Positions 9,387-9,803 of a DNA stretch of 64,000 nt are shown here, in pieces (positions within the stretch are counted from its first letter, which is position 1; each line of letters starts with the position of its first letter). The notes under the pieces are model-generated. The model searched no databases and had not been told where the DNA came from. It worked only from the letters and a program-made list of their open reading frames with translations. A program made the position numbers and the translations under genes. The stretch lies in the NCBI RefSeq assembly GCF_003334815.1, contig NZ_QOWO01000022.1. One strand, 5' to 3'. This stretch comes from Escherichia coli (GTDB lineage Bacteria > Pseudomonadota > Gammaproteobacteria > Enterobacterales > Enterobacteriaceae).

Positions 9387-9707
9387 GATTCCGGGGCGGA
9401 GTTGGTGACTCTGACCGAAAGGGAAATCACTCTACATCTAACACCATCATAGTAGGCTGCGCTTCTCTTTTTTGCAATCAGAAAAATGACTATAATCGCT
9501 CCGTTAGCTCTGTCTGGTGATGCTTCTGCCGTGATCTCCAATGGGACGATGAACGCGAGATTTTAAGTCCTGGCTGATCGAACAGGTGGTGCTGTGTTCA
9601 GTGCTCTGGCTGGAGAGAAATCACTTTACATCTAACAATGAAAGAGCTGTTGTGACAGGCAATGTAAGAGTAAACAACAGTGATTTCCTCCATTGACGGA
9701 GAAACGG

Positions 9708-9803
9708 ATGATTAACCTGTTAATCATCGTTCTCAGGGCAGTTGTTGCTGTGGTCAATGCAGTGATAGCTCTTCTGGAACTGATCCGGGAACTTATTGAC
9801 TGA
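9708..9803 (+). CDS. Small hydrophobic peptide (31 aa), candidate type I toxin-like membrane peptide
   Basis: GGAG 9 nt upstream of ATG 9708. Peptide MINLLIIVLRAVVAVVNAVIALLELIRELID forms a single amphipathic/transmembrane helix. Preceded by a long leader carrying two copies of gaaatcacTNtacatctaaca. Confidence 0.3.
   Translation: MINLLIIVLRAVVAVVNAVIALLELIRELID

Follow-up and report, generated by a model that had tools for sequence, protein, structure and literature searches.

The closest described relatives of the locus analysed here are the chromosomal dinQ-agrAB system of E. coli K-12 (Weel-Sneve et al. 2013; Kristiansen et al. 2016) and the dqlB-agrB systems carried by plasmids. For dinQ, a four-element switch backed by SHAPE, in vitro translation, and RNase III data was described (PMC5066626). 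There, the +1 RNA is untranslated: element 2 is bound by the 5' end (element 1), and the hairpin of elements 3 and 4 sequesters the Shine-Dalgarno sequence (SD) (PMC5066626). Upon loss of 43 nt, element 2 pairs with element 3 and the SD opens; binding of agrB to element 2 shuts the SD again, and the resulting duplex is cut by RNase III (PMC5066626). Based on the shared untranslated region (UTR), the dql family, including dqlA and dqlB, was defined and named in 2016 by Kristiansen et al. (PMC5066626).

In 2025, work on IncL and IncX3 plasmids showed dqlB-agrB to be a plasmid addiction module whose toxicity is neutralised by agrB (PMC12365149, PMC12317039). Induction of DqlB from pOXA-48 halted growth and yielded ghost cells, which was rescued by agrB in trans; a mismatch of 4 nt abolished this rescue and a compensatory change in the UTR restored it (PMC12365149). 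In addition, agrB alone saved cells from death after CRISPR curing of pOXA-48, and transposon insertions in agrB were not recovered (PMC12365149). Similarly, the locus of the IncX3 plasmid pOXA-484 was toxic, neutralised by agrB, and stabilised a test plasmid (PMC12317039). With respect to distribution, dqlB was found in 83% of IncB/O/K/Z and 67% of IncI1 plasmids (PMC12365149).

Analysis of a 64-kb stretch of E. coli DNA (in the following, the window) revealed an open reading frame (ORF) of 31 codons on the plus strand (9708-9803, ATG start, MINLLIIVLRAVVAVVNAVIALLELIRELID) encoding a hydrophobic toxin peptide with a GRAVY of 1.98. The good ribosome binding site (RBS) claimed for this ORF by the first-pass annotation was read from the sequence as GGAG at 9698-9701, 6 nt before the ATG. 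The program-made ORF listing started the same frame at an upstream in-frame TTG (9693); this 36-aa version was rejected and the ATG at 9708 preferred, since the alignment to the family model begins at the ATG and the longer ORF would include the SD. This model, NCBIfam NF041473 ("DinQ-like type I toxin DqlB"; cut-off 35 bits), matched the peptide with 62.9 bits over positions 1-31 of 31. The earlier reading as a type I toxin locus with a single-helix membrane peptide held. The model for DinQ proper (NF041472, cut-off 30 bits) reached only 23.1 bits, and a Pfam scan of the peptide returned no family even at E <= 10. The K-12 DinQ peptide shares the core IALLELIR with the window peptide and differs from it in length (27 versus 31 aa), lacking a segment of 7 codons. 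Compared with nine homologues, the dqlB ORF displayed pN/pS values of 0.13-0.27 with pS up to 0.7, which points to purifying selection acting on the peptide. Identity to the annotated dqlB product of an IncL/M plasmid (L013), the group to which the tested pOXA-48 belongs, was 81%, and the experimentally tested homologues in general shared about 77-81% peptide identity with the window DqlB, with a differing recognition sequence. The 31-codon ORF is thus dqlB, a gene for a small membrane toxin that conjugative plasmids carry and that has been named and annotated before.

The surrounding DNA fits this assignment. A segment of 801 nt with the dqlB locus (9200-10000) was at least 99% identical in 68 plasmid records and 100% identical to many conjugative plasmids of E. 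coli and Salmonella, and 25 kb of the window matched IncK2/Z (I-complex, MPF_I) plasmids, e.g., pH2332-107 (NC_025138.1), with 100% identity. In the plasmids with 100% identity, the same ORF is annotated as dqlB and adjoins trbA, just as pOXA-48-type dqlB loci adjoin trb transfer genes. Hence, the proposal of a new candidate locus did not survive: the family has a name and a curated model, the gene is annotated in RefSeq plasmids of identical sequence, and its prevalence in this plasmid group has been published. The locus is real but ordinary, with nothing new in kind. The practical value of the analysis lies in correct annotation. The antitoxin gene of about 90 nt described below (9352-9441) is absent from the feature tables examined for the identical plasmids, although RNA genes are left out of the PLSDB gene table that was used.

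A Rfam scan of the whole 64-kb window resulted in two matches over the gathering score, one for sok (19890-20046) and one for AgrB on the minus strand (9441-9352). The latter (RF02891) reached 49.3 bits against a gathering score of 40 and covered the full model (1-84), defining an agrB-like antitoxin small RNA (sRNA) gene of about 90 nt; the agrB of IncL/M plasmids, in contrast, was not found by Rfam at E <= 0.01. The antisense RNA suggested by the first-pass annotation thus has a likely counterpart in this gene. Its 5' 42 nt (9441-9400, minus strand) represent the recognition region and contain the first of two repeat copies. The promoter, read from the sequence (9449-9477, minus strand), consists of a -35 box TTGCAA (9477-9472), a spacer of 17 nt, and a -10 box TACTAT (9454-9449), with 7 nt between the latter and the +1 U at 9441. 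This matches the architecture of the K-12 agrB promoter (TTGCAA-17-TAGTAT-7-UUAG), including the 5' UUAG start of the RNA, and the arrangement was positionally conserved in most other loci examined. Downstream, we detected a Rho-independent terminator on the minus strand (9353-9385), an inverted repeat with a perfect stem of 13 bp (100% complementary) and A/T runs on both sides. In the AgrB alignment of Rfam, this stem is the terminal one, and K-12 agrB has the same terminator. The stem also gave a partial match to OrzO-P of 31.8 bits, below the gathering score of 60. The predicted fold of the sRNA, including the terminator hairpin, revealed a z of -3.7. The gene is oriented divergently from dqlB and located 62 nt upstream of the putative mRNA start. 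No second copy of dqlB or agrB was found within the 64-kb window, and the locus differs from K-12, which harbors two sRNA genes (agrA and agrB), in having only one.

The window aligned with K-12 dinQ, a transcript of 331 nt, end to end from the -10 box through the terminator. For this comparison the dinQ +1 was placed at L002:1483, where the published landmarks (U16-U19, sequence 1 at U16-C28, and sequence 2 at G94-G106) read correctly. The -10 box of dqlB, TATAAT (9491-9496, plus strand), aligns with TATGAT of dinQ, no convincing -35 box was seen for the dqlB promoter, and G9503 aligns with the dinQ +1. By this homology, the dqlB mRNA would start at 9503; with the end set by the terminator, it spans about 355 nt (9503-9857, plus strand) with a 5'UTR of about 205 nt. 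The terminator (9818-9857, plus strand) was recognised as an inverted repeat aligning with that of dinQ, forms a stem of 12 bp in the minimum free energy (MFE) fold, and ends in a weak U-tract (UUUAAU), as in dinQ. Neither the two promoters nor the two terminators of the module reached the thresholds of a simple scan (the sRNA promoter with 8/12 matches), and they were placed by homology instead. Folding of 9503-9857 resulted in a strongly structured RNA (-128.4 kcal/mol, z = -4.9) with predicted sequestration of the SD.

The 21-nt repeat that had been noted upstream of the ORF (GAAATCACTNTACATCTAACA) is real; the 64-kb window contains exactly two copies (9423-9443 and 9617-9637), 1-2 nt away from the positions given before (9424-9444 and 9619-9639). 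None of 100 dinucleotide-preserving shuffles matched it. A repeat search lengthened it to 24 nt at 92% identity, and allowing one indel of 1 nt, the similarity of the copies spans about 40 nt. Since the two copies of this direct repeat are transcribed from opposite strands, the repeat amounts to complementarity between sRNA and mRNA. Accordingly placed, the antitoxin target in the 5'UTR (9595-9636, plus strand) contains the second repeat copy and element 2, and its predicted duplex with sRNA nt 1-42 comprises 37 bp (19 AU, 14 GC, and 4 GU), is interrupted by one mismatch and small bulges, and has an energy of -47.5 kcal/mol. Apart from the sRNA gene itself, no other site on either strand of the 64-kb window offered the sRNA as good a target. 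The complementarity of about 35-40 nt is similar to the 35 nt reported for pOXA-48. For these analyses, duplexfold on whole transcripts was replaced by local duplexes and ungapped pair counts, as it was inflated by long internal loops.

To this locus we compared 13 diverse homologous plasmid loci (IncIγ/K1, IncK2/Z, IncF, IncX3/4/5, IncP, and IncL/M) and the K-12 locus. Ten of the 13 plasmid loci possessed one to three AgrB matches upstream on the opposite strand. In the IncFII locus L015, sRNA gene and UTR window overlap, which makes complementarity trivial; this locus was therefore left out of the pairing matrices. A concatenated alignment of target and sRNA from ten loci comprised 32 intermolecular pairs, which were paired in 94% of cases, with changes on both sides (compensatory changes) in 16 of the 32. 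In controls with slid registers, 35-49% were paired. On four of five measures, none of 500 shuffles reached the observed covariation; for the count of further pair types, 23 of 500 did. Within sRNA nt 1-22, cognate pairs showed 0-2 mismatches and most non-cognate pairs 4-12. This covariation could partly reflect homogenisation of the repeats rather than selection on pairing. The recognition core of K-12 agrB has diverged, with 10 mismatches in 22 nt against the window target, so that a K-12-like sRNA of the host, judged by this complementarity, should not neutralise the plasmid toxin. Altogether, a peptide matching the DqlB model, an AgrB gene with promoter and terminator on the opposite strand, and covarying complementarity between both were identified, and we consider it highly probable that the locus constitutes a type I toxin-antitoxin module of the dqlB-agrB kind, carried by a conjugative E. 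coli plasmid of the IncK2/Z group (I-complex).

The 5'UTR revealed all parts described for the dinQ type, namely elements 1-4 with the alternative pairings 1:2, 2:3, and 3:4, as well as the stem-loops SL2 and SL4. Element 1 (9503-9530, plus strand) forms the 5' arm of a long stem, S1, supported by compensatory changes in the RNAalifold consensus; GUUAG (9503-9507) pairs with CUAAC (9632-9636) and GGUGAU (9516-9521) with AUCACU (9620-9625). As an alternative to S1, CUCUGUC (9508-9514) can pair with the SD region (9695-9701). SL2 (9573-9602, plus strand; RNAalifold columns 78-108) is conserved with changes on both sides in seven of nine pairs, and SL4 (9647-9680, plus strand; columns 159-192) with compensatory changes at four pairs. 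Element 2 (GGAGAGAAAUCACU) lies within 9611-9630 on the plus strand, inside the antitoxin target. Element 3 (AGUGAUUUCCUCC, 9679-9691, plus strand) pairs either with element 2 or, via CUCC (9688-9691), with the SD, which is element 4 (9698-9701, plus strand). Finally, an inverted repeat at the start codon (9707-9728, plus strand), equivalent to SL6 of dinQ, was present in the RNAalifold consensus and paired in every fold. K-12 dinQ thus shares the logic of elements 1-4, SL2, SL4, and the start-codon hairpin with the window. Overall, RNAalifold on 13 UTRs recovered S1 including GUUAG:CUAAC, SL2, SL4, and the start-codon hairpin, with compensatory changes in 21 of 45 pairs.

The partial inverse match that the first-pass annotation had placed at 9679-9690 (AGTGATTTCCTC) was found exactly there and turned out to be element 3 in the switch published for dinQ. 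A core of 10 nt within it complements 9422-9431 without mismatch, and the second repeat copy as well. With 0.25 occurrences expected at up to one mismatch, the 12-nt match alone was only weakly above chance; it was taken as real because it is conserved and covaries in the homologues. Duplexes of elements 2 and 3 were more stable for cognate combinations (mean -18.2 kcal/mol) than for non-cognate ones (-13.2 kcal/mol; permutation p < 5e-5, 13 loci). The SD hairpin was present in 13 of 13 loci with covarying stems, e.g., CUCCAG/CUGGAG, UCCCUU/AAGGGA, and GCUCU/GGAGC. In the window it comprises just 4 bp, since C9697 replaces the U of its relatives, and with -5.4 kcal/mol it was among the weakest of the 13 compared.

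When the sRNA target was blocked in the prediction, CUCC (9688-9691) became paired with GGAG (9698-9701). In the full-length MFE fold, the 5' CUCUGUC was paired to the SD region and the duplex of elements 2 and 3 had already formed, which differs from the +1 model of dinQ; a dinQ-like conformer with S1 and the 3:4 hairpin lay 3.3 kcal/mol above the MFE in a constrained fold. Both full-length conformers are predicted to close the SD. A series of 5' truncations in silico did not reproduce an open SD of the kind described for dinQ +44, its probability of being unpaired being at most 0.25 at every truncation tried, and in the form truncated to +58 the SD paired with CUCUG (9604-9608).

Taken together with the published work on dinQ, these elements suggest how the module may operate. 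The plus strand would be transcribed into the mRNA of about 355 nt (about 9503-9857), the structured 5'UTR of about 205 nt sequestering the SD, and since the SD is sequestered in the full-length mRNA, the primary transcript would serve as a stable untranslated reserve. By analogy to dinQ, 5' trimming may allow element 2 (within 9611-9630) to pair with element 3 (9679-9691), which would free the SD, so that the 31-aa DqlB peptide could be made, enter the inner membrane, and kill the cell. From the minus strand, the sRNA of about 90 nt (9441 to 9352), whose 5' 40 nt mimic element 3, would pair with 9595-9636; seated on element 2, it would shift element 3 onto the SD (CUCC:GGAG) and block translation, and the long duplex of sRNA and mRNA might be a substrate for RNase III. 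Should the sRNA be shorter-lived than the mRNA reserve, a cell having lost the plasmid would be killed (post-segregational killing). As the tested homologues of pOXA-48 and IncX3 plasmids act as addiction modules, the window locus was taken to be a post-segregational killing module as well; for this locus, the site of transcription initiation, trimming of the 5' end, cleavage by RNase III, toxicity, and the part in addiction are deduced from homology to the described systems.

Other readings of the locus were weighed against this one. In the first-pass annotation, both repeats were placed in one long leader that could fold back onto the RBS region in the manner of hok or tisB mRNAs; in a cis-only version of this reading, no RNA acting in trans would come from the first copy. 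The repeat and the inverse match are indeed real, the mRNA is strongly structured (z = -4.9), and intramolecular sequestration of the SD is predicted; folding of the mRNA around the RBS stands as part of the control. That the inverse match simply folds the leader onto the RBS does not, and the first copy (9423-9443) lies inside a full-length AgrB match to Rfam on the opposite strand with conserved promoter and terminator, upstream of both the conserved -10 box and the equivalent of the dinQ +1, the mRNA most likely starting near 9503. Furthermore, a perfect bidirectional terminator of 13 bp (9353-9385) is located just upstream, and two direct copies in one RNA strand are unable to pair with each other. 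A cis-only leader comprising both repeats is therefore ruled out by the anatomy of the locus, and we regard this reading as practically untenable.

A stress toxin induced by the SOS response, repressed by LexA and released on DNA damage like chromosomal dinQ, instead of a constitutive plasmid addiction module, appears very unlikely. Homology to the LexA-regulated dinQ speaks for it, as does a CTG-N10-CAG motif at 9570-9585, the equivalent of which was proposed as an SOS box in the IncI1 plasmid pTF2 (HI 11.6; PMC12211044). However, this only CTG-N10-CAG motif falls at +68 to +83, inside the transcribed and covarying stem of SL2, whereas no such motif and thus no LexA box was found at the dqlB promoter (9440-9520), where the box overlapping the -10 of dinQ (TACTGTATGATTATCCAGTTA) is replaced by TGACTATAATCGCTCCGTTA; LexA regulation of the dqlB promoter was rejected on these grounds. 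DqlB was also undetected in the proteomic analysis of the pTF2 study (PMC12211044), and the plasmid homologues behave as addiction modules (PMC12365149). The window promoter thus differs from that of K-12 dinQ in having no LexA box, and since the locus is plasmid-borne, its expected role is addiction and not a response to damage. Highly improbable, in turn, is a decayed or silenced allele, in which dqlB-agrB would still be recognisable but no longer toxic or contributing to maintenance, with pnd/hok or other systems covering for it. Such decay might be read from the SD hairpin weakened by C9697, where relatives have U, and from the sRNA, whose pairing with its own target is interrupted by a mismatch and a bulge and is no better than that with an IncX5 target. 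Against this, ORF, SD, promoters, and terminators are intact, the scores lie well over the family cut-offs, the peptide appears to be under purifying selection, and the 9200-10000 segment is kept at 99% identity or more in the 68 plasmid records; as far as can be judged from sequence, nothing in the dqlB locus suggests decay.

Compared with described modules, the addiction module proposed here resembles DqlB-agrB of pOXA-48 and pOXA-484 most, with a peptide of 31 aa from the NF041473 family, a divergent AgrB-like sRNA, and the same UTR elements, and its mRNA is homologous to that of K-12 dinQ from the -10 box to the terminator. By analogy, it would share with hok/sok the nature of a plasmid type I addiction module with a small membrane-damaging peptide and an unstable antisense RNA, as well as a full-length mRNA that is stable and folded and stays untranslated until processing activates it. 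In contrast, the sequences are unrelated: at the dqlB locus, there was no match to sok, and the peptide was unrelated and without a Pfam match. While Sok overlaps in cis and works through the mok leader ORF, the window sRNA is divergent, without overlap, and would act on a switch in the 5'UTR; likewise, hok is activated by 3' trimming and dinQ by 5' trimming. With zorO-orzO and tisB-istR1, the locus has in common a divergent upstream sRNA pairing with a long 5'UTR far from the RBS and an inactive primary mRNA. Here, the families of toxin and sRNA are different, and the match to OrzO is confined to the terminator hairpin.

Major differences among the dqlB-agrB loci were detected in the recognition sequences. 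The recognition sequence of the locus belongs to another specificity class than that of IncL/M dqlB, with 11-12 mismatches in 22 nt against IncL/M targets. Against its own target, the window sRNA formed 20 Watson-Crick and 1 GU pairs with 1 mismatch in 22 nt, and against the dqlB target of an IncX5 plasmid 19 Watson-Crick and 2 GU pairs with 1 mismatch; an IncX4 target was fitted nearly as well as its own. Some related plasmids additionally carried 'orphan' agrB copies perfectly matching the dqlB target of another plasmid, e.g., L004_a2 against the target of L003 (22/22), and L007 harbored three agrB copies of different classes. It is possible, though rather doubtful, that the agrB-like recognition cores fall into discrete specificity classes across incompatibility groups and that agrB RNAs could cross-neutralise addiction modules of other plasmids. 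If functional, this would amount to anti-addiction against co-resident or competing plasmids and might shape which plasmids can displace each other. This mildly new pattern is the one lead that goes beyond the literature consulted.

Two further observations concern the neighborhood of the locus. For an adjacent ORF of 34 aa, tblastn resulted only in near-identical plasmid copies. In addition, a pnd locus of the hok/sok type was identified in the same window at about 19.9-20.2 kb. With pnd/hok-sok and dqlB-agrB, the window thus encodes at least two addiction systems of type I; modules of this kind bear on how resistance and virulence plasmids persist and on strategies to cure cells of plasmids.

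In the allele of the window, dqlB, the gene of the 31-aa toxin, carries a C at position 9697, while its relatives have a U. Owing to this C, the local hairpin at the Shine-Dalgarno sequence (SD) shrinks to a 4-bp stem, which at -5.4 kcal/mol is one of the weakest of 13 compared. The C also replaces a G.U by a G-C pair where the 5' end of the mRNA (CUCUGUC, 9508-9514) is predicted to pair over 7 bp with the SD region (GACGGAG, 9695-9701, plus strand). Based on the weaker hairpin and the gained G-C pair, the predicted SD closure is shifted towards a hok-like fold-back of the 5' end.

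Further upstream of the ORF, the 5'UTR contains a CTG-N10-CAG site, CTGGCTGATCGAACAG (9570-9585, plus strand), whose equivalent on the IncI1 plasmid pTF2 was proposed to be the LexA box of dqlB, with an HI of 11.6 (PMC12211044). In the window, this site falls at +68 to +83 of the inferred dqlB mRNA, within the covarying stem of the conserved stem-loop SL2, so that an RNA structure element is more likely than a LexA operator. The SL2 region also takes part in a second direct repeat (9583-9604/9739-9760, plus strand), which connects the 5'UTR with the ORF at 18/22 identical positions. The ORF copy coincides with a 21-nt segment of seven codons in DqlB that is absent from DinQ in the K-12 alignment, and 9583-9604 was the sole match of at least 17/22 to this segment on either strand of the window. 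Since the same comparison in 11 other dqlB loci revealed a similarity of just 9-14/22, this repeat may have arisen by chance or be specific to the lineage.

Regarding the agrB-like antitoxin sRNA, the recognition core of the window sRNA (9400-9441, minus strand) was set against an IncX5 (L009) and an IncX4 plasmid (L011) and proved nearly identical to that of the IncX5 plasmid. Over sRNA nt 1-22, the window sRNA showed 20 WC pairs, 1 GU pair, and 1 mismatch with its own target, and the IncX5 target fits equally well (19 WC, 2 GU, 1 mismatch). The duplex energies are -49 kcal/mol with its own and -53 kcal/mol with the IncX5 target. Judged by these sequences, cross-protection among the window, IncX5, and IncX4 plasmids is predicted. 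Foreign specificities were detected in additional agrB copies as well. The second agrB copy of the IncK2/Z plasmid pDETEC82 (L004 313-400, minus strand) is complementary at 22/22 positions to the dqlB target of the IncIγ/K1 plasmid p14EC033e (L003) and has six mismatches to dqlB of its own plasmid. Three tandem agrB genes are present on the IncF plasmid L007 (189-507, minus strand), the first of which matches its own dqlB target (-61 kcal/mol; 21 WC, 1 GU, 0 mismatches); for the remaining two, a target of the L003, window or IncX5 type is a better fit than that of L007 itself. Such copies on L004 and L007 may have been left behind by dqlB copies now lost, or may act as anti-addiction elements.

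The 'first' type I locus of the window (19890-20196, plus strand) consists of a match to sok (Rfam RF01794; 19890-20046, 124.5 bits) and a Hok/PndA-like ORF of 50 aa, MPQRTFLTMLIVVCVTILCFVWMLRDSLCGFRVEQGNTVLVATLAYEVKR (20044-20196). Thus, including dqlB-agrB, the plasmid harbors at least two RNA-controlled addiction modules.

Convergent with dqlB, we identified an unannotated putative 34-aa ORF, MRKRKQKRDDNPMIWEKLAMLTAGAFLILAVLWG (9870-9974, minus strand), which is basic at its N-terminal end, hydrophobic at its C-terminal end and overlaps the 3' end of an annotated 103-aa ORF (9946-10257). It revealed no obvious SD and no match in an NCBIfam search; tblastn found it in 109 plasmids, mostly as identical copies and hence uninformative on coding either way. 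The dqlB-agrB module is flanked by the trbABC transfer genes and virulence-type cargo, namely a gene about 1.5 kb from dqlB for a serine-protease autotransporter of 1387 aa (11357-15520, minus strand; annotated 'S6 family peptidase' in identical plasmids). The TrbA C-terminus (about 7925-7990, minus strand) displays a short tandem repeat (…GETTETTETTETTETRH…), which reads PLKPLKPLKP or SVVSVVSVV in the other frames.
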